The notes under the pieces are model-generated. The model ran no database searches and was not told the DNA's origin. It was given only the letters and a program-made list of their open reading frames with translations. A DNA stretch of 63,203 nucleotides, counting the filler. It is 6 parts of 6 records of this genome, joined end to end, with 100 filler letters (N's around TTAATTAATTAA, not from the genome) between each part and the next. Parts side by side here need not be neighbours in the genome. Positions count along the whole stretch, not along the records: positions 1 to 12,863 come from SRR31156797_13911; 5 more parts are not named here. One strand, 5' to 3'. How positions within the stretch are numbered: position 1 is the stretch's first letter; each line of letters begins with the position of its first letter. The position numbers and the translations under genes were made by a program. Shown here piece after piece: positions 1,647 through 25,607 of this stretch.

Positions 1647-3023
1647 TCAGCCGCCGAACTTATCGATATAGCCTCCGATAAACACGACCAGAATGATCAG
1701 GGGGAGGATGTAGCGGACGTAGAACTTGAGCTGAACGGGGAACTTGATTCCCCTTCCGGCGTCGGCCTCGCCCACGAACTTATCCCAGCCCCAGCCGATC
1801 TTGAAGCTGCAGAACAGGGCGAAGATCAGGGAGCCTAAGGGGAGCAGATTGTTTCCAACGATAAAGTCCTCCAGGTCCAGAACAACGGTGCCTTCTCCCA
1901 GGGGAGCGAAGCCGCTGAGGACGTTGAAGCCCAGGGCGCAGGGAAGGGAGAGGACGATCATGGCCAGGCCGTTGAGTACGGCGGCCTTCTTCCGGTTCCA
2001 GCCCCAGTGTTCCATGGTGTAGGCCATGATGTTTTCAAACACGGCGATGACCGTGGACATGGCGGCGAAGCTCAGGAAGAGGAAGAACAGGCTTCCCCAG
2101 ATCCGTCCGCCGGCCATGGAGTTGAAAATATTGGGCAGGGTCACGAAGATCAGTCCGGGTCCGGCTCCCGCGTCCACGCCGAAGGCGAAACAGGCGGGGA
2201 AGATGATCAGGCCCGAGAGGATGGCTACCGCCGTGTCCAGCCCGATGATATTCAGGGACTCTCCCGTCAGCCTGTGGTCTTTCTTGATATAGCTGCCGAA
2301 GATGGCCATGCTTCCGATACCCAGGCTGAGGGTGAAGAAGGCCTGTCCCATGGCGGCGTATACGGTCTCCCAGACGCCGGTGGCTACCAGCTTGCCCAGG
2401 TCGGGCTTCAAGAAGAAGGCCACGCCCGCGCCCGCGCCGGGGAGGGTGAGGGCCTTGATCACCAGGATCAGGAGGATGACGAACAGGGAGGACATCATCA
2501 AGGTGGTGATCTTTTCAACGCCCTTTTCCAGCCCCAGCGAGCAGACCAGGAATCCCAGGACGACCACGGGGATCATCCATCCTATCTGAATGCCGGGAGA
2601 GGCGAGCTGAGCGCCGAAGAAGGCGCCCACCTGATCGGGGGCCATGCCCGACAGGCTACCGGCGAGGGTGTGGAAGAAGTAGGCCAGCATCCATCCCGCT
2701 ACGGTGGTATAGAACATCATCAGCACCAGGTTCCCCAGGATGGCGATGTGCCCGTAGATGTGCCAGCGGCTTCCCTTGGGCTCCAGGGCCTTCAGGGCGC
2801 CGGCGATGTTCTTCTGTCCGCCTCGCCCGATGGCCAGCTCCATGGTGAGAACCGGCAGGCCGAGGATAAACAGGAAGACCAGGTAGATGAATACGAAGGC
2901 CGCTCCGCCGTACTGGCCTGTCATAAAGGGGAAGCGCCATACGTTCCCCAGGCCGATGGCGCAGCCCGCCGAGATCAGAAGGAAGCCCAGGCGGGTTCCC
3001 AGTTTTTCTCTTTGCTCACTCAT
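1647..3023 (-). CDS. Sodium-dependent transporter, NSS/SNF family
   Basis: GCAIGLGNVWRFP, GQAFFTLSLG, GPGLIFVTLP; start moved to MSEQREK (ATG 3023) with AAGGAG RBS. Confidence 0.92.
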   Translation of the reverse strand: MSEQREKLGTRLGFLLISAGCAIGLGNVWRFPFMTGQYGGAAFVFIYLVFLFILGLPVLTMELAIGRGGQKNIAGALKALEPKGSRWHIYGHIAILGNLVLMMFYTTVAGWMLAYFFHTLAGSLSGMAPDQVGAFFGAQLASPGIQIGWMIPVVVLGFLVCSLGLEKGVEKITTLMMSSLFVILLILVIKALTLPGAGAGVAFFLKPDLGKLVATGVWETVYAAMGQAFFTLSLGIGSMAIFGSYIKKDHRLTGESLNIIGLDTAVAILSGLIIFPACFAFGVDAGAGPGLIFVTLPNIFNSMAGGRIWGSLFFLFLSFAAMSTVIAVFENIMAYTMEHWGWNRKKAAVLNGLAMIVLSLPCALGFNVLSGFAPLGEGTVVLDLEDFIVGNNLLPLGSLIFALFCSFKIGWGWDKFVGEADAGRGIKFPVQLKFYVRYILPLIILVVFIGGYIDKFGG

Positions 3024-3033
3024 AATATGCTCC

Positions 3034-3132
3034 TTATCCCTTCTTTTTCGTGGCGATGTACAGACAGACCGCCGCACCGCCCCAGGTAATACCCAGGCCG
3101 AGAATCATCATTATAATGGCATCTATTGTCAT
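3034..3132 (-). CDS. MetS-type NSS transporter small subunit (32 aa)
   Basis: Manual translation MTIDAIIMMILGLGITWGGAAVCLYIATKKKG*; AAGGAG RBS; single TM helix with the WGG motif typical of MetS-family small subunits; directly downstream of an NSS large subunit. Confidence 0.85.
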   Translation of the reverse strand: MTIDAIIMMILGLGITWGGAAVCLYIATKKKG

Positions 3133-3150
3133 GTTTTCTCCTTATGTCCT

Positions 3151-3203
3151 ACCGAAGCTCCTTAAGGAGCCTCGGCGACTTGCTCTCATAGGGCCGAAGG
3201 GCC
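3151..3203 (-). ncRNA. Candidate cis-regulatory RNA motif, copy B (upstream of the small-subunit gene)
   Basis: Minus strand GGCCcttcGGCCctatgagagcaagtcgCCGAGGCTCCttaaGGAGCTTCGGt, then aggacataAGGAG RBS; homologous to 4718-4767 and 12158-12208. Confidence 0.6.
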
Positions 3204-4696
3204 TAGTTCAGCTCTGCGGCTGTTTTGTTGTTCCACTTCATCCGCATGATCACGACGGAAGCCAGGGCCAGGACGATGATCATGGCCCAGCCGAAGACGA
3301 TCTGTACGGTGGTGTCGTAGCCGGAGTAGTTGTTCTTCAGGTCGTTGATGAGATTCAGAATCCAGTTGACACCCAGGACGAGGGGGGTGACAAAGCGGAT
3401 CGTGATGTCCCACCACTTACCGATCTTGAAATCGCTTGTCAGGTTGGCGTGCTCCCGGAGGCTGCCCAGATTGAAGAACCAGCCCAGGAGGATGACCTCG
3501 ATGATCCCGGCGGTGACGATACCGTAGTTGTTTATGTAGTGATCCACCACATCCAGGATATGAAGTCCCGCGCCGGTGGCGTAGATAAGGCTGATCGCAC
3601 AGGCCGCCAGGGAGTACCAGATGGTAACCTTGTGACGCTCCCATCCGGTCTTGTCTGAGATGGAGCGGACGATGACCTCGTTGATGGAGATAAAGGAGGA
3701 AAGACCCGCGAATGAGAGGGTCATGAACAGCAGTACTCCGATCAGGGCATTCAGGGCGGGCAGCTGGCTGATGGCCGAGGGGAGGGTGACGAAGGCCAGA
3801 AGAACTCCCGCCAGCTTTTCGGGGAGGGTTCCTCCCGCCTGGTGCTGCATAAAGCCCACGATGCTGAAGATGGCGATACCGGCGAGCATGCTGAAACCGC
3901 AGTTCAGGAAGGCGGTCATAAAGGCATTGTTGACGATATCCGACTTCTTGGGCAGGTAGCTGGAGTAGGTGATCATGATGGCGAAAGCGATGCTCAGGCT
4001 GTAGAAGATCTGACCGTAGGCGGCGATCCACACGGAGGGATCCATTACGGCCTTGAAATCGGGCTTGAAGAGGATCTGGAGTCCGTCGGCGGCACCGGGA
4101 AGGGTGACTGCGCGGACTACGATGACCAGAAGCATAACGATCAGGATGGGCATGAAAAACTTGTTGGCCCGCTCCAGTCCCTTGTGGACGCCGGCGTAAC
4201 TGGCCAGAAAATTGACGAGCCATGCGGCTATGATGGTCATCAGGATCCAGAGGTTGAAACCGCTCATATCAAAGGGACCGCTGCTGATCTTGAGATAGCT
4301 GCTCAGGAAGAAGTCGGCGGGGGCGCTTCCCCAGGACTGGGTGAAGCTGAACGCCACGTAGCTGATGGACCAGCCGACGACGGCGACGTAGTAGTTGGCG
4401 ATGACCACGTTGATACCGGTCTGGAACCAGCCCAGCCACTCCCACTTCTTATGAAGGGAGGCGAAGGTCAGAGGGGCTCCGGCCCGGCTCTTATGGCCCA
4501 GGCTGAACTCAAGGATCATGATGGGGATACCCGCTGTCAGCAGGGCGACGAAGTAGGGGATCAGGAAGGCCCCCCCTCCGTTTTCATATACCATGTAAGG
4601 GAAGCGCCAGATGTTTCCGAGGCCTACGGCGGAACCGACGGCGGCCAGGATGAAACCGAGGCGGCTTCCCCATTGCTGTTTTTGTTTATCAGACAA
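3203..4696 (-). CDS. Sodium-dependent transporter, NSS family (MetP-like large subunit)
   Basis: GSAVGLGNIWRFPY, YGQIFYSLSI, SSYLPKKSD; TTG start with AAGGAG RBS; followed by a MetS-type small gene. Confidence 0.92.
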   Translation of the reverse strand: MSDKQKQQWGSRLGFILAAVGSAVGLGNIWRFPYMVYENGGGAFLIPYFVALLTAGIPIMILEFSLGHKSRAGAPLTFASLHKKWEWLGWFQTGINVVIANYYVAVVGWSISYVAFSFTQSWGSAPADFFLSSYLKISSGPFDMSGFNLWILMTIIAAWLVNFLASYAGVHKGLERANKFFMPILIVMLLVIVVRAVTLPGAADGLQILFKPDFKAVMDPSVWIAAYGQIFYSLSIAFAIMITYSSYLPKKSDIVNNAFMTAFLNCGFSMLAGIAIFSIVGFMQHQAGGTLPEKLAGVLLAFVTLPSAISQLPALNALIGVLLFMTLSFAGLSSFISINEVIVRSISDKTGWERHKVTIWYSLAACAISLIYATGAGLHILDVVDHYINNYGIVTAGIIEVILLGWFFNLGSLREHANLTSDFKIGKWWDITIRFVTPLVLGVNWILNLINDLKNNYSGYDTTVQIVFGWAMIIVLALASVVIMRMKWNNKTAAELN

Positions 4697-4717
4697 TTTT
4701 TACTCCTTATTATTTTG

Positions 4718-4767
4718 CCAAGGCTCCACCGGAGCCCTGGTGATTTTCTCGATAGGGCCAAAGGGCC
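4718..4767 (-). ncRNA. Candidate cis-regulatory RNA motif, copy A (5' leader of the NSS operon)
   Basis: Minus strand GGCCctttGGCCctatcgagaaaatcaCCAGGGCTCCggtGGAGCCTTGG, then caaaataatAAGGAG RBS. Confidence 0.6.
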
Positions 4768-4895
4768 GTATTGGATGTGTTGATAACTTCTAAGATTGTG
4801 CAGTTTAACGGTGAGTTGTCAATCATTAATTAAATGGTAATGTTTGTTAATTCGTAGAAATAACGGCTATTTTCTGCTGGTTTCTATAAACAGAA

Positions 4896-4917
4896 ACGTT
4901 TTTGTACGCAAAAACGT
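4896..4917. promoter_or_regulatory. Perfect inverted repeat, possible transcription-factor operator in a divergent promoter region
   Basis: ACGTTTTTG-tacg-CAAAAACGT in the AT-rich intergenic region between divergent genes. Confidence 0.35.
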
Positions 4918-5050
4918 ATTGTTGTGATCCTTCGTCCAGCAGTGAGGCAAAGGGGGCTTTACATAAATGATAGTTCAGGATTTGCAATTTGATTTTTTAG
5001 TGTTATCCTATTAGAAAAGGCATATATAAGACGATCTCCGGGAGGAACGT

Positions 5051-5383
5051 TTGAGAAACCTGGTCATTATTTTCTTTGTTCTGATCAACCTTACAGGATT
5101 CACACTGGCTTTGCTGGACAGTACGGAGAGTCGTAGGGATGAGGGCTCCTACTTTTCCATCCCCAGTGATATAAGGGTGTTGACCCTGTCCGCCTTCGGC
5201 GGCGCGATCGGCAGTTATGCGGGCTGCGTCGTCAGCAGCGGAGGCTTCGCCTGTGTCCAGCTGCGGGGAGCCCTGCAACTGATTATCGTGCAAAACCTCG
5301 TCACCTTTATGCTGGCTCTCAGAGCCTTCCGGCGGAAAAAGAAGAAAAACGCCTCCTATACACGCTCATCCCTCAGCCTGTAG
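5051..5383 (+). CDS. Small membrane protein, DUF1294-like
   Basis: GGAGGA RBS, TTG start; INLTGFTLALLD and LSAFGGAIGSYAG resemble the DUF1294 pattern; three hydrophobic segments. Confidence 0.55.
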   Translation: MRNLVIIFFVLINLTGFTLALLDSTESRRDEGSYFSIPSDIRVLTLSAFGGAIGSYAGCVVSSGGFACVQLRGALQLIIVQNLVTFMLALRAFRRKKKKNASYTRSSLSL

Positions 5384-5394
5384 CGAGCCGTCCG

Positions 5395-6753
5395 TTACAG
5401 AAATTTTTCCTCAAACTCGGTGGCGCCCACGGGGGGGCTTGAGATGTAGCCCTGGATGTAACGGCAGCCCTCCGATATCAGGCAGTCGAACTGATCCTGC
5501 TCTTCTATCCCTTCGGCCAGGGTGGTGAACCCGAAGGTGCGGGCAATGCCCAGTATGGCCCTTACCATCTCGAGGCTGTCCGGGCTTTCGGGCAGATCGT
5601 CCACGAACTCCTTGGCGATCTTCAGGGTGTTTACGGGAAAACTGTTCAGGGCGCTCAGGCTGGAGTAACCGGTTCCGAAGTCATCCATCATAATCTCGAT
5701 GCCGATCTCCTGCAGGGCCTTCAGCTTCTCCCTGGCGATCTCCGGATTCGACATGACCGCGCTCTCGGTAATCTCTATATGGAGGGCCTCACCCGGAAGG
5801 TTGAGAACCTCCAGCGCATTGGCAACGGTCTCGAAGAAATCATCCTGCTCCAGCTGGACGGAGGATATGTTCACAGAGACCTGAAGGCTCTCAAGCCTTT
5901 CCTCTCTCCATATCTTGACCTGTCTGAGCGCATTGTACAGAACCCACTTCCCCAGATGGCAGATCAGGTTGCTCTCCTCCGCCAGGGGGATGAACCGGCC
6001 CGGCGATACGGCCCCCTTGTCGGGAGCGTCCCAGCGCAGAAGGGCCTCGCAGGCAATCAGGTTCCTGTGGCCGTCCACAATGGGCTGATAGGCGACGTGG
6101 AATCCCTCGAAGCTGTTGAGGACGCTCATGCGCAGGCTGTATTCCAGGTTTTGGCTCTCATGGAAATCCTCGCCTCTCTCCGGACTGTAGATGAAACCGT
6201 TCCAGCTCTTCGCCTCGTAGATGCCCAGGGCGATCTCCGCATTGACCTCCAGCTCGTCCACGCTTCGGGCGTGCCGGGGATAGAGGGCGACGCCGACGTT
6301 GCATCCGAAGTTGACATCCGTGGCGGGATGCTGGTGTGACTCTGAGATCTTCATGATCATCTGCTCGATACGCTCTTCGACTTCCTTTTCATCGTGGATG
6401 CTAGGAATGATAAACAGGAACTCGTCCGACCGGTCCGACTGGTAGAGGTTTTCCTCCCCCACCAGAGATTTCAGGCGTTCCGATGAGACATAGAGCAGAA
6501 CCTTCATACGGTCCCGGGTGTGGCGTATCCTCTGATAGTTCTTGTCCAGCCGCAGTATGCCGAAGGCGAAGGGCTCCTTCGACTCGCTGATCATCTTGTT
6601 CAGCCGCCGGGTGAGGATATGCCTCTGCATCAGACCTGTGTCGGGATTGTGATTCAGAAGATTCTCCAGCTGCCTGCTATGATCTTTTTCCAGCTGCAGT
6701 TCTATTTCAGTCTGTCTGAGTTTTTCTCTGCACTCTGCCAGGGGATCGGCCAT
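5395..6753 (-). CDS. EAL-domain c-di-GMP phosphodiesterase with a degenerate GGDEF domain
   Basis: YQPIV, CEALLRW, EITES, DDFGTGYSS, LKIAK, LAEGIE, IQGY; GGDEF position reads RSDEF; start MADPLAE (ATG 6753) with AGGAG RBS. Confidence 0.88.
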   Translation of the reverse strand: MADPLAECREKLRQTEIELQLEKDHSRQLENLLNHNPDTGLMQRHILTRRLNKMISESKEPFAFGILRLDKNYQRIRHTRDRMKVLLYVSSERLKSLVGEENLYQSDRSDEFLFIIPSIHDEKEVEERIEQMIMKISESHQHPATDVNFGCNVGVALYPRHARSVDELEVNAEIALGIYEAKSWNGFIYSPERGEDFHESQNLEYSLRMSVLNSFEGFHVAYQPIVDGHRNLIACEALLRWDAPDKGAVSPGRFIPLAEESNLICHLGKWVLYNALRQVKIWREERLESLQVSVNISSVQLEQDDFFETVANALEVLNLPGEALHIEITESAVMSNPEIAREKLKALQEIGIEIMMDDFGTGYSSLSALNSFPVNTLKIAKEFVDDLPESPDSLEMVRAILGIARTFGFTTLAEGIEEQDQFDCLISEGCRYIQGYISSPPVGATEFEEKFL

Positions 6754-6999
6754 TTTGAATACGCTCCTCTTGTCAATCAGGATAAGGCAATCGGGCCGGG
6801 AGTTCAACTTCTATCGGGCATTCGGGCTATAATGAGTAATCGGCGATATAGGAATGCTTAAAATACAATACCCATTCCCTTTCCATTATGGTATAAATAT
6901 ATCCAAATTTGTTTAATAATGCTTTCAATGCTGTTTCTTTCTGTAAAAACAGCTTTGCTTCGGCTTGATAAGCCGGATTCTGTTCTAAGGAGATATCAT

Positions 7000-8598
7000 A
7001 TGTCTGAAATCGTAGTTCTGGGAGACGAGGCCGTCGCCCTGGGTGCCATTCACGGAGGAGTGTCCTCTTGTTATGGTTATCCCGGCACACCATCGACCGA
7101 GATAATGGAATACCTCATTGAGTATAATGAGAAGAATGAGGCTCCCTTCGCCCGCTGGTCCAGTAATGAAAAAACGGCTTTGGAAGAGGGGCTCGGAGCC
7201 TCCTTCGCCGGTAAGAGGGCCATCGTGACCATGAAGCATGTGGGCCTCAATGTGGCGGCAGACGCTTTTATGAACGGCGCTCTTCTGGATATCCGGGGCG
7301 GTCTGGTCATCGTGGTCGCCGACGATCCCGGAATGCACTCTTCCCAGAATGAGCAGGATACCCGCTATTACGCCGACTTTGCCAAGGTTCCCCTTCTGGA
7401 ACCGGTTAACCAGCAGCAGGCCTATGAGATGACCCGCGAGGCCTTCGACCTTTCCGAGAAGATGCACACCCCCGTGCTGCTCAGACTGGTCACCCGCCTG
7501 TCCCACTCCCGGTCCAGCATCATGACCTCCGAGCCCCGGCAGGAGAACGCCCTGGACAAGGCCGACAACAGGATGGATTGGATGCTCCTGCCCGCCAACG
7601 CCCGTCGCCGCTGGGACAGCCTGCTGAAAAGGCAGGACGATATGGTCGCCTACAGCGAGGCCAGTCCCGTCAACGCCCTGGTTATGAACGAGGGCAATAA
7701 GAAGACCGGTGTCATTACCACCGGACTGGGCTTCAACTACTATAAAGAGAGCGTGGGCGAGCTTTCCGACGCTCCCTCCCATCTCCATATCGGGGTGTAC
7801 CCCTTTCCCGTGGATAAGATCCGCAAGCTGGCCGCCCATGTGGAGGAGCTGGTGATTCTGGAAGAGGGCTACCCCTTCGTCGAGCGTTTTCTGGTCGGCC
7901 TGCTGCCCGGAGGGGATCTCAAGATCAAGGGCAAGCTGAGCGGAGACGTACCCGAACAGGGCGAGCTCAACCCCGACAATATCCGCCCCGCCCTGGGACT
8001 TCCCGCCAGAGAGTCGGTCGCTCCCGCCGCCATGGAGCTGGCCGGACGCCCGCCCCAGCTCTGCAAGGGCTGTCCTCACGATGACACCTACAGGGTCATC
8101 AAAGAGGTCCAGGCCGAGCTGGAAGAGAGCACGGTGACCTCGGACATCGGATGCTACGCCCTGGGAGCTCTGCCCCCCTTGAGCGTTCCCGAAGCCATCA
8201 TCTGCATGGGCGCTTCCATCACCGCCGCCAAGGGGGCCTCCGAGGCCGGACTGAAGAACGTGATGGGCGTTATCGGCGACAGCACCTTCCTCCACTCCGG
8301 GCTTACCGGTCTGGTGGACTGCGTTTCATGCGATACGGATGTGACCATCATCATCGTGGACAACGAGACCGTGGCCATGACCGGCGGTCAGACGACCATC
8401 CTTCCCTCCAGCCGCCTCGAGAACGTGGTCAGGGGAATCGGTGTGGATCCCGATCATCTGATCACGATACCCGCCCACCGCAAGTTCCATGAGGAGAACA
8501 AGGAGAGGCTGCGCAAAGAGCTGGCCCACAAGGGCGTTTCCGTTATCATCGCCGTAAGGGAATGCATTGAAACCGCACGTAAGAAGGTCAGGAAATAA
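7000..8598 (+). CDS. iorA: Indolepyruvate:ferredoxin oxidoreductase alpha subunit
   Basis: GYPGTPSTE, MKHVGLNVAAD, DDPGMHSSQNEQD, RPPQLCKGCPH, TPP-binding IGDSTF...DN; start MSEIVV (ATG 7000) with AGGAG RBS. Confidence 0.93.
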   Translation: MSEIVVLGDEAVALGAIHGGVSSCYGYPGTPSTEIMEYLIEYNEKNEAPFARWSSNEKTALEEGLGASFAGKRAIVTMKHVGLNVAADAFMNGALLDIRGGLVIVVADDPGMHSSQNEQDTRYYADFAKVPLLEPVNQQQAYEMTREAFDLSEKMHTPVLLRLVTRLSHSRSSIMTSEPRQENALDKADNRMDWMLLPANARRRWDSLLKRQDDMVAYSEASPVNALVMNEGNKKTGVITTGLGFNYYKESVGELSDAPSHLHIGVYPFPVDKIRKLAAHVEELVILEEGYPFVERFLVGLLPGGDLKIKGKLSGDVPEQGELNPDNIRPALGLPARESVAPAAMELAGRPPQLCKGCPHDDTYRVIKEVQAELEESTVTSDIGCYALGALPPLSVPEAIICMGASITAAKGASEAGLKNVMGVIGDSTFLHSGLTGLVDCVSCDTDVTIIIVDNETVAMTGGQTTILPSSRLENVVRGIGVDPDHLITIPAHRKFHEENKERLRKELAHKGVSVIIAVRECIETARKKVRK

Positions 8599-8764
8599 GC
8601 GTCTCCGGCCCGGTCCGGAAGCCGTCTGAGGAGGCCCTGCCCCTCAGGTCTATGCAGATAGCTGTCCCGGGGGGATGTGAGTCCTCCCCGGGCTGCAAGC
8701 GTTCAGCGCTTCGGCGGATGCGATCCATCCGCTGACAAGCGCAGCATTACGAGGAGATAATAAG

Positions 8765-9334
8765 ATGAAATACGATATAATTCTTTCCGGTGTAGGAGGA
8801 CAGGGGGTTCTTTCCCTGGCCGCCGTTATCGCTACAGCCGCCGCCGATGCGGGATTCACCGTCCGCCAGTCGGAGGTTCACGGTATGGCCCAGCGCGGGG
8901 GCGCCGTTATGGCCCATATGCGCATTGCCGACGGAGAGATCTACTCCGATCTGATCGGGCAGGGAACGGCGGATATGGTACTGAGCATGGAGCCCCTGGA
9001 GAGTCTCCGCTACCTGAAGTGGCTCTCTCCCGAGGGAATACTCGTGACCTCTACCAATCCGGTCGTCAATATTCCCAACTACCCCGACAGGAAGCAGGTG
9101 ATCTCCGAGCTGGAGAAGCTCGCCTCCTACAGACTCGTGGATGACAAGACCCTGGCCAAGGAAGCCGGCTCCTCCAAGGCCGGAAACATGGTTATCGTCG
9201 GCGCCGCGTCAGAGTCCCTTCCTCTGGAGATGGACCATCTGAAGGCCGCCGTCAAGAAGCTCTTCGGCCGTAAGGGAGACGCCATAGTGGAGACCAACTT
9301 CAAGGCCCTCGACCTGGGACGGAATTCCAAATGA
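8765..9334 (+). CDS. iorB: Indolepyruvate:ferredoxin oxidoreductase beta subunit
   Basis: SGVGGQG, SEVHGMAQRGG; follows iorA. Confidence 0.93.
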   Translation: MKYDIILSGVGGQGVLSLAAVIATAAADAGFTVRQSEVHGMAQRGGAVMAHMRIADGEIYSDLIGQGTADMVLSMEPLESLRYLKWLSPEGILVTSTNPVVNIPNYPDRKQVISELEKLASYRLVDDKTLAKEAGSSKAGNMVIVGAASESLPLEMDHLKAAVKKLFGRKGDAIVETNFKALDLGRNSK

Positions 9335-10647
9335 CCCGCGGCCTGTACAGCGATGCGGAGGTGGAGCGGCTTGACCGCGAAGCCCTGAAGGCCCTGCAGC
9401 TGCTCCGCCTGAAGAAGACGGTCAGCACCGCCCTGACGACCCCCTTTTACAAGGAGCGCTTGAAGAAGGCGGGGATCGCTTCGGCCGCAGACATCCGTAC
9501 CCTGGACGATATCCGCAAGATACCCTATACCACCAAGGAAGACCTGCGGGAAGCCTATCCCTACGGACTGCTGGCCGTTGATCATGAGGAGATCGTCCGG
9601 ATGCACGCCTCCAGCGGCACCACCGGAACACCCACGGTGATCTACCATACCCAGGGGGATCTGGACAACTGGACCTATATGACCGTTCGTTCCCTCAAGG
9701 CCACCGGCTGCCACAGGGGCGACGTCTTCCAGAATATGATGACCTACGGTCTGTTCACCGGGGGCATCGGCCTGCACTACGGCGCCGAGAGGCTGGGGAT
9801 GCTGGTTATCCCCGCTTCCAGCGGGAATACGACCCGCCAGTTCAAGCTGATGAAGGACTTCGGCACCACCACCATTCACGCCACCCCCAGTTATATGCTC
9901 CATCTCTACTCCCGTATGGAGGAGATGGGCTACTCTCTGGAGGACTTCAAACTGGAGAGGGCCCTTATCGGAGCGGAACCCCACTCCGAGGAGATCCGTC
10001 AGAAGATAGAGGAACTCTTTAAGATCGATGCCTACAACTCCTACGGCCTGTCCGAGATGAACGGCCCCTCCGTGGCTTTCGAGTGTATGGAGAAGAGCGG
10101 GATGCATGTGTGGGAAGACGCCTACTGCATGGAGGTTATCGATAGGGACAGTCTGGAACCCGTTCCCGACGGGGACGAGGGCGAGCTTGTTCTGACCATA
10201 CTGATCCGGACGGGAACCCCCATCCTGCGCTACAGGACCAAGGACCTGACCAGGATCATACCCGAGCCCTGCGCCTGCGGAAGAACGAGCCGGAGGATCA
10301 CGAGGATCAAGGGACGGACCGATGACATGCTGATCATCAACGGCGTCAACGTATTCCCCTCTCAGATCGAAGAGGTGATTATGAAGATGCCCGGCATCGG
10401 CACGAACTACCTGATCAAGGTGAGCAAAGAGGGAACCCTGGACAGGCTGACCATCCAGACCGAGGTCCGTTCGGAGATGTTCACCGACGACGCTCAGGAC
10501 CTTCACAAACTGAAACGGCGGATCACCGAGGAGCTGTCGGCTTCTATCACCATACGTCCGGCCGTGGAGCTTCATGAGCCCGGATTCCTCCCCGTTCAGC
10601 AGGGGAAGGCCATTCGCGTCGTGGATGAGAGAACCGGAACTTTTTAA
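9331..10647 (+). CDS. paaK: Phenylacetate-CoA ligase family protein (copy 1)
   Basis: HASSGTTGTPT, YGLFTGG, YGLSE, RYRTKD, GRTDDMLIINGVNVFPSQIE; 4-nt overlap with iorB. Confidence 0.9.
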   Translation: MTRGLYSDAEVERLDREALKALQLLRLKKTVSTALTTPFYKERLKKAGIASAADIRTLDDIRKIPYTTKEDLREAYPYGLLAVDHEEIVRMHASSGTTGTPTVIYHTQGDLDNWTYMTVRSLKATGCHRGDVFQNMMTYGLFTGGIGLHYGAERLGMLVIPASSGNTTRQFKLMKDFGTTTIHATPSYMLHLYSRMEEMGYSLEDFKLERALIGAEPHSEEIRQKIEELFKIDAYNSYGLSEMNGPSVAFECMEKSGMHVWEDAYCMEVIDRDSLEPVPDGDEGELVLTILIRTGTPILRYRTKDLTRIIPEPCACGRTSRRITRIKGRTDDMLIINGVNVFPSQIEEVIMKMPGIGTNYLIKVSKEGTLDRLTIQTEVRSEMFTDDAQDLHKLKRRITEELSASITIRPAVELHEPGFLPVQQGKAIRVVDERTGTF

Positions 10648-10803
10648 GGGATCCGATATAACCGGCCCGTTCCGCCATGGCGGCAGAGGCCGGATCTTTC
10701 CGGTTCCGTACTGACCGACGGGTCGGTCGGTAGCGGGAGACAGTATAATCGGGGCTGCGGCTTCAGCCTGGCCCCTTGCATAAAATCAGCAGGAGGAATC
10801 GTA

Positions 10804-12105
10804 ATGATTTGGAATAAAAGCGCGGAATGCGACAACCTGGATGACCGGAAGGTTCAGCAGCTGTACAGGCTCAAAAAGCTGGTCCGGCATGTGTATGAAA
10901 ACGTACCCTTCTATAAGAAGAAGTTTGATGACGCCGGCGTGAAGCCTGAAGATATCAAGACCATGGCCGATATCGCCAGGCTCCCCTTTACCACCAAGGA
11001 TGAGCTGCGCGACACCTATCCTTACGGTCTGGTCGCCTGCGACCAGAAGGATGTCGTCGAGATCCATACCTCCTCCGGAACCACCGGAACCCCCGTCCTC
11101 GCCGCCTATACGAAAAATGATATGGACATGTGGGGAGAGGTGATGGCGCGCTGTCTCTGCATGGCCGGCGGAACCCCCGACGATGTGGTCCAGAACGGAT
11201 ACGGATACGGTATGTTCACCGGCGGCCTGGGCGTGCATTACGGCTCCCATACCCTGGGCTGTATGACCATCCCCGTTTCCTCGGGAAACACCAAGCGGCA
11301 GCTGATGCTGATGCGGGACTTCAAGTCCACCATCCTGACCTGTACCCCCTCCTACTCTCTCTACATGGCCGAGGCCGCCAAGGAGATGGGCATCGACTTC
11401 AAGGATCTCTCTCTGAAGGCCGGTATCTTCGGGGCCGAGCCCTGGAGCGACAATATGCGGAAGGAGATCGAGGATAAGCTGAACCTCAAGGCCTTCGATA
11501 TCTACGGCCTGACCGAGATCGTCGGTCCCGGGGTCTCCAATGAGTGCGAGGCCCACGACGGTCTGCATGTGAACGAGGACCACTTCTACCCCGAGATCAT
11601 CGATCCCAAGACGGGAGAGGTCCTCCCCGAGGGAGAGAAGGGCGAGCTCGTCTTCACTACCATCACCCGGGAGGGAACCCCCATCATCCGTTACAGGACC
11701 CGGGATATCACCTGGCTCTGGCACGACGACTGTCCCTGCGGACGGACCACCGTCAAGATGCACCGCCTCCTGGGCCGTACCGATGACATGCTGATCCTCA
11801 GGGGTGTCAACGTCTTCCCCAGCCAGATCGAAAACGTCCTCATGCGTATCGAAGAGACCGAGCCCCACTATCAGATCGTGGTCGACCGCGGCGATACCCA
11901 CCTGGACGAGGTGGAACTGCATGTGGAGGTCGAACCCAGTTTCTTCACCGACGAAACCAGGGATCTGGAACGGATCAAGAATAAAATCGCCGCCGAAATC
12001 AAGCAGGAGCTGGGAATCGCGGTTATAATAAAGCTTGTGGAACCCAAGTCCATCGCCCGTTCCGAGGGCAAGGCAAAGCGGGTCATCGACAAGAGAACCC
12101 TGTGA
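10804..12105 (+). CDS. paaK: Phenylacetate-CoA ligase family protein (copy 2)
   Basis: HTSSGTTGTP, YGMFTGG, GAEPWS, YGLTE, GRTDDMLILRGVNVFPSQIE, GKAKRVIDKR. Confidence 0.92.
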   Translation: MIWNKSAECDNLDDRKVQQLYRLKKLVRHVYENVPFYKKKFDDAGVKPEDIKTMADIARLPFTTKDELRDTYPYGLVACDQKDVVEIHTSSGTTGTPVLAAYTKNDMDMWGEVMARCLCMAGGTPDDVVQNGYGYGMFTGGLGVHYGSHTLGCMTIPVSSGNTKRQLMLMRDFKSTILTCTPSYSLYMAEAAKEMGIDFKDLSLKAGIFGAEPWSDNMRKEIEDKLNLKAFDIYGLTEIVGPGVSNECEAHDGLHVNEDHFYPEIIDPKTGEVLPEGEKGELVFTTITREGTPIIRYRTRDITWLWHDDCPCGRTTVKMHRLLGRTDDMLILRGVNVFPSQIENVLMRIEETEPHYQIVVDRGDTHLDEVELHVEVEPSFFTDETRDLERIKNKIAAEIKQELGIAVIIKLVEPKSIARSEGKAKRVIDKRTL

Positions 12106-12157
12106 GTTTCCGGCCGGGGGCCGCGTTTCCCGGCGAAGCATCCCATTGATCATCTAA

Positions 12158-12208
12158 GGCCCTCGGGCCCTATCCGGGAAAATCACCATGGCTCCAGGGG
12201 GAGCCGTG
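12158..12208 (+). ncRNA. Candidate cis-regulatory RNA motif, copy C (upstream of the ACT-domain gene)
   Basis: GGCCctcgGGCCctatccgggaaaatcacCATGGCTCCagggGGAGCCGTG, then acaggataaaaAAGGAG RBS and ATG at 12233. Confidence 0.6.
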
Positions 12209-12232
12209 ACAGGATAAAAAAGGAGTTTTACT

Positions 12233-12649
12233 ATGAAGGTTAAGCAGATTTCCGTATTCCTTGAAAATAAAAACGGACGCCTCTCCGAGGTGACCCGTAC
12301 CCTCTCCGAGGCGAAGATCAGCCTCCGGGCCGTCTCCATCGCCGATACCGCAGATTTCGGAATCCTTCGTCTGATCGTCGAAGAGCCCGACCGCTGTCTG
12401 AAGCTTCTTCAGGACAACAGCTTTACCGCCCGGGTCACCGAGGTCATCGGCGTTTGCATAAACGACAGACCCGGCGCCCTGCACGATGTGATGCAGATCT
12501 TCGAGGACAACAATGTGAACATCGAGTACCTCTACTCCACCATGATGCTAATGGACGATAAGGTGGTCATCATGTTTAAGGTCGAGGACATCGATCACGG
12601 GCTGAATATCATCAAGGAGAACGGGATGGAGGCCATTACCGCCTTTTGA
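12233..12649 (+). CDS. Tandem ACT-domain (amino-acid-binding) protein
   Basis: QISVFLENKNGRL, SIADTADFGILRLIV, DRPGAL, NIEYLYS; family commonly found beside paaK/iorAB. Confidence 0.9.
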   Translation: MKVKQISVFLENKNGRLSEVTRTLSEAKISLRAVSIADTADFGILRLIVEEPDRCLKLLQDNSFTARVTEVIGVCINDRPGALHDVMQIFEDNNVNIEYLYSTMMLMDDKVVIMFKVEDIDHGLNIIKENGMEAITAF

Positions 12650-25263: not shown

Positions 25264-25319
25264 CCCTTTTTGGTCCGCAAGATCCTGGGGGCTCCATGTC
25301 CTTTGGAGAGTCTCCCATT

Positions 25320-25478
25320 GCAAGGCAGGTCTTCTGACTTACGCGTCGTCCTACCGGCCGCGTCTTCCCACCCGTTGGAGCAGTGACTTCATGTGCGGCT
25401 TTCGTCAGCGATTACAGCGGCGGGCCCGTCCCTGAGTTTCACAGGGTTCCCTATTAAGCTTGTAAAGCACCATGCAAC
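25320..25478 (-). ncRNA. Cobalamin (AdoCbl) riboswitch
   Basis: Minus strand GGTGC...TTAATAGGGAAcccTGTGAAAcTCaggGACGGgCCCGCCGCTGTAA...AGTCACTG...GGGAAG...AAGTCAGAAGACCTGCC (B12 box). Confidence 0.93.
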
Positions 25479-25607
25479 ATCTATTTCAGCCAGACAAAAC
25501 CAGACAACCATCAAGGTGTCAAGAAAAAAACCTTTGATTGCTATTGTGATCCGTATCTGTTACCAAAGAATTTTAACCGACCTTCAGCAATTTAGAGGAG
25601 ATTTCCC

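Follow-up and report, generated by a model that had tools for sequence, protein, structure and literature searches.

A two-hairpin interspersed repeat fused to Shine-Dalgarno sequences in Oceanispirochaeta and its relatives

The stretch of DNA under study (the window, 63,203 nucleotides (nt) in full) carries three segments of ~65 nt, each with two hairpins, which lie sense to the next gene and abut its Shine-Dalgarno sequence (SD) with their 3' edge. A preliminary description had proposed them as a riboswitch candidate linking amino-acid uptake to a nearby ior/paaK/ACT pathway. Our analysis points elsewhere. With a probability of about 0.8, the segments are copies of a lineage-restricted, multi-copy interspersed element of ~55-65 nt that was inserted, or has survived, only at SD sites, and we have little doubt that it belongs among the dispersed insertional repeats rather than among regulators specific to a ligand or pathway. 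The copies are sense-only, have a 3' edge fused to the SD, form arrays in places, precede unrelated host genes and conserve their pairing. The family layout consists of hairpin 1 (GGCC-N4-GGCC), CUAU, an A-rich single-stranded linker ending in AUCAC, a hairpin 2 of 9-10 bp and a short tail of the type (U/C)AGGAC-AU. The element sits between the downstream SD and either an upstream stop codon, when operon-internal, or a 5' untranslated region (5'-UTR).

Three copies in the window

The three segments share one order: a 4-bp hairpin 1 of the form GGCC-N4-GGCC, CUAU, an A-rich linker ending in UCAC or UCGC, a hairpin 2 of 9-10 bp, a tail of 8-10 nt, AAGGAG, and a start codon 5-7 nt further on. Copy A (4703..4767, minus strand) lies in the 5' leader of an SNF/NSS symporter gene, with hairpin 1 at 4767-4756, CTAT at 4755-4752, the A-rich linker at 4751-4741, hairpin 2 at 4740-4718 (10 bp, loop GGT), the tail at 4717-4709, the SD AAGGAG at 4708-4703 and the start codon TTG at 4696-4694. 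Copy B (3138..3203, minus strand) is located between the stop codon of the SNF gene and a gene for a 32-aa small subunit. Its parts are hairpin 1 (3203-3192), CTAT (3191-3188), linker (3187-3176), hairpin 2 (3175-3152; 10 bp, loop TTAA), tail (3151-3144), the SD AAGGAG (3143-3138) and the start codon ATG (3132-3130), and the SNF stop codon (TAG, 3205-3203) overlaps the first G of its hairpin 1. Copy C (12158..12225, plus strand) is located between the second paaK-like gene (stop codon 12103-12105) and an ACT-pair gene. It comprises hairpin 1 (12158-12169), CTAT (12170-12173), linker (12174-12185), hairpin 2 (12186-12209; 9 bp plus a C-A mismatch at the base, loop AGGG), tail (12210-12219) and the SD AAGGAG (12220-12225), followed by the start codon ATG at 12233.

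Both hairpins were predicted by ViennaRNA in all three copies. The 16-nt hairpin-1 pattern occurred three times in the 63-kb window against 0.53 expected, and 1 of 100 shuffles reached three. A covariance model built from the three window copies (R1) scored copies A, B and C at 75.1, 75.2 and 77.2 bits; with filters off, the next best match in the window was the antisense of hairpin 2, at 19.4 bits. A broader model built from 51 copies (R2) recovered the same three copies only, at 62-72 bits (copy A 71.7), with the next match at 17.3 bits. The three segments are real and beyond chance. Their places and strands and their position beside the ribosome-binding site (RBS), as given in the preliminary description, agree with these coordinates, layouts and scores, and the nearly fixed distance to the SD was confirmed in the window copies. 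No Rfam family matches the element: at the gathering score, Rfam 15 returned nothing in the window save an unrelated cobalamin riboswitch, and at E<=10 it gave chance-level matches only for the element.

A dispersed repeat with a fixed position in G001

When 185,579 species genomes were searched with a strict 25-base pattern, a single match was obtained, in a metagenome-assembled genome (MAG; G001) of Oceanispirochaeta, a close relative whose ACT and NSS proteins are 94% and 95.7% identical to those of the window. R1 gave 58 matches in G001 at E<=1, of which 48 were full length at E<=0.0012. We first examined 51 of the 58, leaving out four hairpin-2-only partial matches, two weak ones (E>0.5) and L179. 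In 49 of the 51 copies a start codon follows 11-22 nt past the model end with an SD in between, and the remaining two precede a tandem copy that is itself followed by SD and start. L179, added later, proved to be a further true copy with the same layout. All 52 copies are thus sense and upstream of a start codon or a tandem copy, with none antisense, intragenic or after a gene. The tandem junctions share a single AAGG, and the 12 nt before L009 and L040 look like the tail of an earlier copy, one missed by both models. The 5' edge of the element is overlapped or abutted by the stop codon of an upstream same-strand frame (>=60 codons) in 11 of the 51 copies; among these frames are short ones that are perhaps not genes.

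The 49 downstream genes in G001 represent 76 Pfam families, and no family occurs in more than two of the genes. They include aconitase, OTCase/carbamoyltransferases, glucuronate isomerase, TGT (tRNA-guanine transglycosylase), starch synthase, CbiC, the MsrA/B methionine sulfoxide reductases and ABC/FtsX transporters. Because the genes are unrelated, a ligand- or pathway-specific regulon is excluded. The search with a three-copy covariance model and the table of downstream genes, both proposed in the preliminary description, thus yielded many copies and no common theme. That description had also named a plain REP-like repeat, scattered over the genome in both orientations and at gene 3' ends, as the outcome that would speak against a riboswitch; copies are indeed scattered genome-wide, but neither in both orientations nor at gene 3' ends.

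A hairpin-1-only pattern matched G001 at 25 places, of which 22 were already model matches and one was a further true copy (L179); the other two run into sequence without linker or hairpin 2 and look like chance. Since 23 of the 25 are true copies, the ascertainment bias is small. Variants also occur within G001. L029, L179 and L017 form a minor subfamily in which a longer, different apex loop of hairpin 2 replaces CUCC/GGAG; L029 is the orthologue of copy A, and copy A itself is of the main type. L028, L042 and L048 are without hairpin 1 and start with AGG-CCCTA, which would fit either a deletion of the stretch between the two GGCCCT half-repeats or a duplication that never took place.

Filled and empty orthologous sites

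Comparison of orthologous sites shows the element as a discrete unit that some genomes have and others lack. When the NSS region of the window was aligned with G001 (blastn), two segments of 87% identity were obtained, with 69 nt between them in the window but 11 nt in G001. The copy B site of G001 reads CTGAACTAGGAGAGAAGTGAAATG, with the stop codon overlapping a plain SD. In the window the same TAGG is followed by 62 extra nt (3201-3140, absent from G001) and then by AGAAAAC and ATG. AAGGAG is found at the 3' edge of the element, and the junction lies within AGG-AG, ambiguous over 3 nt (AGG).

The copy A site is filled in G001 as well (L029), and so is the paaK-ACT site of copy C (L002/L076). 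At the latter, G006 carries two tandem copies and G007 a hairpin-2 remnant; the junction is empty in four of ten genomes (G004, G005, G009 and G010), with 15-34 nt from stop to start, and G002, G003 and G008 have other sequence there. Similar comparisons were made for three operon-internal G001 copies, L010, L024 and L034. The L024 site is empty in G004, G010 and G009, reading GGCGGCGTTTAAGGAGCGACAGAAATG in G004; the L010 site is empty in G006, G004 and G009; and the L034 site is empty in the same three genomes and filled by divergent copies in G010 and G008. In the G010 copy at the L034 site (L187), the frame of the upstream gene enters the element and stops at an internal TGA, which indicates that the insertion replaced the original C-terminal codons and stop.

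The element was absent from 80 of 80 metagenomic NSS loci (45-81% protein identity). Among five such loci that were read, L101 and L103 have a B site of the TAAGGAGG type, in which the stop codon overlaps the SD, and L097 and L098 have a simple AAGGAG before the start at the A site. Because even the nearest of these loci are only ~80% identical and all are empty, they represent ancestral states and no recent polymorphism. In assembled contigs from four public runs, copy B was kept in two close strains, and many pieces match the element only and then diverge into unlike sequence. No clean empty allele was seen in these contigs of close strains, in which stretches without cover were not interpreted.

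Conserved structure and age of the copies

Among 53 distinct copies, 93.0% of stem cells are paired against 84.8% in shuffles, a fraction that is somewhat inflated by a model that rewards pairing. Changes on both sides were found in 10 of 14 pairs, with 70 double-change cells against 23.3 expected; none of 500 shuffles was as high for pairing or for double changes, and shifting the partner by one column lowered pairing to 59%. G-U/U-G cells outnumber A-C/C-A cells 45 to 15 (3:1), which suggests that the sense strand folds, either as RNA or as single-stranded DNA. A single-strand structure is therefore kept by compensatory change. In this respect the preliminary description was right: stem 2 does pair through differing bases, and the sense-only copies, the covariation and the G-U excess bear out its view of a strand-specific, G-U-tolerant structured element. 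A long-range helix between CUAU and a G(U/C)AG after hairpin 2 was considered and dropped, as many copies, inspected by eye, have an uncompensated A opposite C.

The copies are old. Their mean pairwise identity is 0.59, and none of 1128 pairs within G001 reaches 0.90. In its core, copy A has an identity of only 52% with L029; the figure for copy C and L002 is 75%, in contrast to nucleotide identities of 87-91% in the flanking genes. The apex of hairpin 2 tracks the genome and not the site: the window and G001 have a GGCUCC-N3-GGAGCC apex, and G006, G010, G002 and G007 have longer, A/U-rich loops, even at shared sites. This genome-wise pattern is compatible with turnover where sites are used again, with concerted change, or with an apex that co-evolves with a trans-acting factor.

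Distribution among related genomes

The range of the element is narrow, patchy and lineage-restricted. At E<=0.001, R2 found it in 6 of 61 G001 relatives, with 59, 48, 11, 5, 5 and 2 copies (59 in G006 and 11 in G010), and in none of 150 other genomes sampled across the phylum (E<=1e-4). Both screens used strict filters and capped the number of candidates scored, so that the counts are lower bounds; with filters off, R2 finds divergent copies at 15-31 bits, including one in G008, for which the count had been zero. Among 24 copies examined in the other five genomes, 12 lie directly before SD and start, and four are in arrays ending at one. The G006 arrays are head-to-tail with a period of ~52 nt, and their last unit abuts GGAGG before ATG. 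One copy in G002 (L069) has hairpin 2 followed directly by a T-run, with no open reading frame (ORF) within 130 nt downstream; it is a terminator-like variant, apparently at a gene 3' end.

Proposed insertion at SD sequences

In the interpretation that we favour, the element would have spread by insertion at SD sequences, or survived only there, and would be co-transcribed with its host gene as part of the mRNA. Because the junction lies inside A/UAGG-AG, a working SD would be retained at the 3' edge and the host gene would stay translatable. We lean towards the SD itself being the insertion target, rather than copies being merely retained there. More tentatively, the repeat may be an SD-homing mobile element that uses the sense-strand SD core (A/U-AGG-AG) as its site and rebuilds the SD, its RNA then acting as a portable intercistronic module or as a landing pad, which would serve a genome-specific RNA-binding factor; we regard this extended version as possible and, on the whole, improbable.

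Several observations weigh against insertion at the SD or against a mobile element as such. The ambiguity of the copy B junction over 3 nt makes a target-site duplication indistinguishable from none. G010 has its own copy (L063) before the same 32-aa gene, so copy B is possibly an ancestral copy that was lost precisely in G001. Outside G001, only those 12 of 24 copies stand directly before SD and start; two of the 24 are in arrays without an ORF within 130 nt, and six have no ORF of >=60 aa within that distance. The paired fraction is inflated somewhat, as said above, and the lack of near-identical copies in G001 means that there is no sign of recent activity there. SD accessibility, as predicted, is no better with the natural element than with a shuffled one. 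No mobilising gene was found: the Y1 transposase domain PF01797 was counted twice in G001 and not at all in G006 and G010, and five and seven times in the copy-free G004 and G009, although the G006 and G010 assemblies are fragmented and absence there is weak evidence. As PF01797 does not co-occur with the element, the Y1 transposase was rejected as the mobiliser. Nor was a longer parent element with the same ends found in G001, where all 11 matches to the tail pattern with <=1 mismatch were at places that R1 or R2 had reported and matches with two mismatches equalled a reversed-pattern control (48 vs 48). Compared with a MITE, the element has a terminal inverted repeat that is weak by eye, its ends matching at only ~9 of 13 positions with one gap.

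A possible role at the RNA level

We put the chance that the retained hairpins have a host-level RNA role a little below even. The favoured role, at modest odds and as a prediction only, is that of an RNase Y processing cassette. RNase Y cuts A/U-rich single strands beside a stem, and it would here cleave the A-rich linker close to hairpin 2, so that the upstream cistron would be capped at its 3' end by hairpin 1 and the downstream cistron at its 5' end by hairpin 2. RNase Y is encoded in all five genomes tested. RNase E/G was rejected as the processing enzyme, as PF10150 was not found in any of the five. The main alternative is a factor, CsrA or another, that would recognise the linker or the tail with its GGA; CsrA is likewise encoded in five of five genomes, element-bearing or not. 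An insulator that keeps the SD unpaired was also considered and rejected: the mean unpaired probability was 0.545 with the natural and 0.541 with the shuffled element, higher in 26 of 52 copies (Wilcoxon p=0.96). The fallbacks offered by the preliminary description, a protein-binding leader or a processing or stability signal, may still prove right.

Alternative explanations

The riboswitch reading holds that the segments are ligand-sensing leaders which tie NSS amino-acid uptake to the ior/paaK/ACT aryl-acid pathway. Three copies within 9 kb, each preceding an amino-acid-related gene, a conserved structure with covariation and the absence of a known family all speak for it. However, the ~50 copies in G001 precede unrelated genes, the orthologous NSS and ACT genes mostly do without the element (80 of 80 metagenome loci; the ACT site in 4 of 10 genomes), hairpin 2 has its apical half swapped wholesale between genomes, copy A shares only 52% with its G001 orthologue, and the minimum-energy structures show neither a terminator nor an alternative fold that sequesters the SD. 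The riboswitch and its pathway link are thus refuted, and we leave them next to no probability. A derivative of the IS200/IS605 or REP/RAYT type, non-autonomous and moved as single-stranded DNA by a Y1 (HUH) transposase, is a further alternative: the transposase would read two same-strand hairpins, insert 3' of A/U-AGG without duplication and excise seamlessly. Two unlike hairpins, strict strand specificity, pairing that tolerates G-T on one strand only (45 vs 15), an insertion point beside a fixed short motif, the traceless empty allele in G001 and a hairpin 2 that ends ~12 nt before the 3' boundary are all in line with such an origin. It is nevertheless distinctly unlikely, given that the assemblies of G006 and G010, as searched, contain no PF01797 (weak evidence in the fragmented G006) and that its count reaches 5-7 in the copy-free G004 and G009, that hairpin 1 stands at the very 5' boundary whereas the IS608 hairpin lies some 20 nt inside its end, that G001 has no parent element, and that the copies occur at gene 5' ends only, unlike REP/BIME.

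Two further explanations concern why the hairpins persist. In one, the element is a cis-acting RNA module that puts ~1% of genes under a global post-transcriptional factor such as CsrA, another RNA-binding protein or a small RNA; insertion would be the route by which the regulon grows, and function the reason for retention. In its favour, old and diverged copies keep their stems by compensatory change, the linker and tail are conserved in sequence and not in pairing, and the hairpin 2 apex is genome-specific, as co-evolution with a trans factor would predict. The tail and SD together hold two GGA motifs, one of them within the SD, and CsrA is found in all five genomes. Yet CsrA is equally present in the copy-free G004 and G009 and so does not discriminate, the GGA motifs lie outside hairpin loops although CsrA prefers GGA in loops, and the downstream genes have no functional theme, so that we consider this module unlikely. 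The other takes the copies for a passive relic of an old selfish burst, now neutral, in which hairpins persist because a broken hairpin 2 would free CUCC to pair with the SD. No pair of G001 copies reaches 90% identity, predicted SD accessibility shows no gain, and hairpin 2 in the window and G001 does set CUCC opposite GGAG. The relic is made rather doubtful by the G006/G010 subtype, which keeps a perfect stem without a CUCC/GGAG apex, by the conservation of sequence in hairpin 1 and the linker as well, and by the retention of copies at shared sites in genomes that have an ACT protein 75-94% identical to that of the window.

Gene context and other features of the window

The neighbourhood of the copies comprises the SNF-family symporter gene (3203-4696), the gene of the 32-aa membrane peptide, a second SNF gene, iorA/iorB-like genes, two paaK-like genes and the ACT-pair protein, and these identities are the ones assigned in the preliminary description. 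The peptide gene (3034..3132, minus strand) encodes the small partner of the SNF transporter, and its SD is the insertion site of copy B. The two SNF-family transporter genes, 1647-3077 and 3203-4696, both on the minus strand, flank it on either side. The order of large subunit and then peptide is preserved in distant metagenome loci, where the stop codon overlaps the SD or the start, which suggests that the two form a conserved two-component transporter.

Copies B and C are operon-internal. Upstream of copy A, a promoter-like site on the minus strand (4795..4822; TTGACA, 16 nt, CACAAT) matches the consensus at 10 of 12 positions, a consensus match only; it ends ~28 nt upstream of copy A, which would, if the promoter is real, lie within the 5'-UTR. 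A perfect palindrome with 9-bp arms and a 4-nt centre (4896-4917), ~75 nt upstream of this promoter-like site of the NSS operon, could be an operator. On the opposite strand of copy A, the complement of hairpin 2 and linker (4727-4742, plus strand) scores as terminator-like, and the element might halt antisense transcription entering gene starts. A GC-rich hairpin without a T-run (12110-12135) is found between the paaK stop codon and copy C, outside the repeat, and a similar one occupies the same position in G001 (L076). The cobalamin riboswitch is a full-length RF00174 aptamer (25307-25489, minus strand; 112.6 bits, E 2e-27), unrelated to the repeat.

Relation to known repeats and significance

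The element represents a new family of a known broad kind, the bacterial interspersed structured repeats, with an unusually strict placement at the RBS. A full-text literature search for SD-associated interspersed repeats, supplements aside, found neither a description of the element nor the SD core as a target, and the listing obtained for Oceanispirochaeta showed no work on repeats. In its logic, the closest system appears to be the mycobacterial MIRU, and many MIRUs are intercistronic. A passage of PMC12548453 describes MIRUs as short, apparently mobile repeats, oriented like the operon, whose insertion at the start codon spares host expression; they carry an internal ORF which, coupled at -4 nt to the gene of the host, limits the harm. 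Our element likewise lies in operon orientation at the translation-initiation region and is present or absent as a unit. It differs from MIRUs in its junction at the SD, its host-specific spacer to the start codon and its want of a conserved internal ORF, as well as in sequence, two-hairpin fold and host phylum. A MIRU-type coupling ORF was rejected: 18 of 52 copies have an ORF that ends between -12 and +4 relative to the start, these ORFs have neither a start offset nor a register in common, and an internal ATG is found in only 14 of 52.

Other families offer partial parallels. REPs are single imperfect palindromes with a GTAG head, located mostly after genes in both orientations and co-occurring with a RAYT gene. 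Like REP, BIME and REPIN sequences, the element is short, structured, high-copy and extragenic, has compensatory stems and forms clusters or mosaics; unlike REP/BIME, it has two unlike hairpins, is sense only and restricted to gene 5' ends, and has no tie to PF01797. With the PATEs of the IS200/IS605 group it shares the lack of clear terminal inverted repeats, unlike sub-terminal hairpins, strand-specific insertion next to a fixed short motif and seamless empty sites; the Y1 transposase that PATEs require does not co-occur with it, and its hairpin-to-end distances differ from those of IS608. At the RNA level, the effect that we propose for the element is of the kind known from ERIC and Correia repeats. 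Unlike the element, these measure 120-150 bp, have terminal inverted repeats, occur in either orientation and at varied intergenic places, and have no tie to the SD; in the Correia family, a TA target is duplicated. In passages of PMC3049150 that give the background on BIME, ERIC and Correia effects, ERIC and Correia sequences are co-transcribed operon-internal repeats which can introduce sites for RNase cleavage and change how stable the neighbouring cistrons are.

The present work removes a false riboswitch candidate and documents an undescribed repeat family of marine spirochaetes. It also carries a warning for annotation, as covariation and a leader position are not sufficient for a riboswitch call; copy number and the coherence of the gene set are needed as well. 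The filled and empty alleles of one junction would constitute a natural experiment on what a structured spacer immediately before the SD does to translational coupling and to mRNA processing and stability. If the element does home to SDs, transposition would spread a post-transcriptional trait through a genome. If the SD is truly the target, the family would be a second natural solution, after the MIRUs, to the problem of how selfish repeats colonise operons without silencing their genes.

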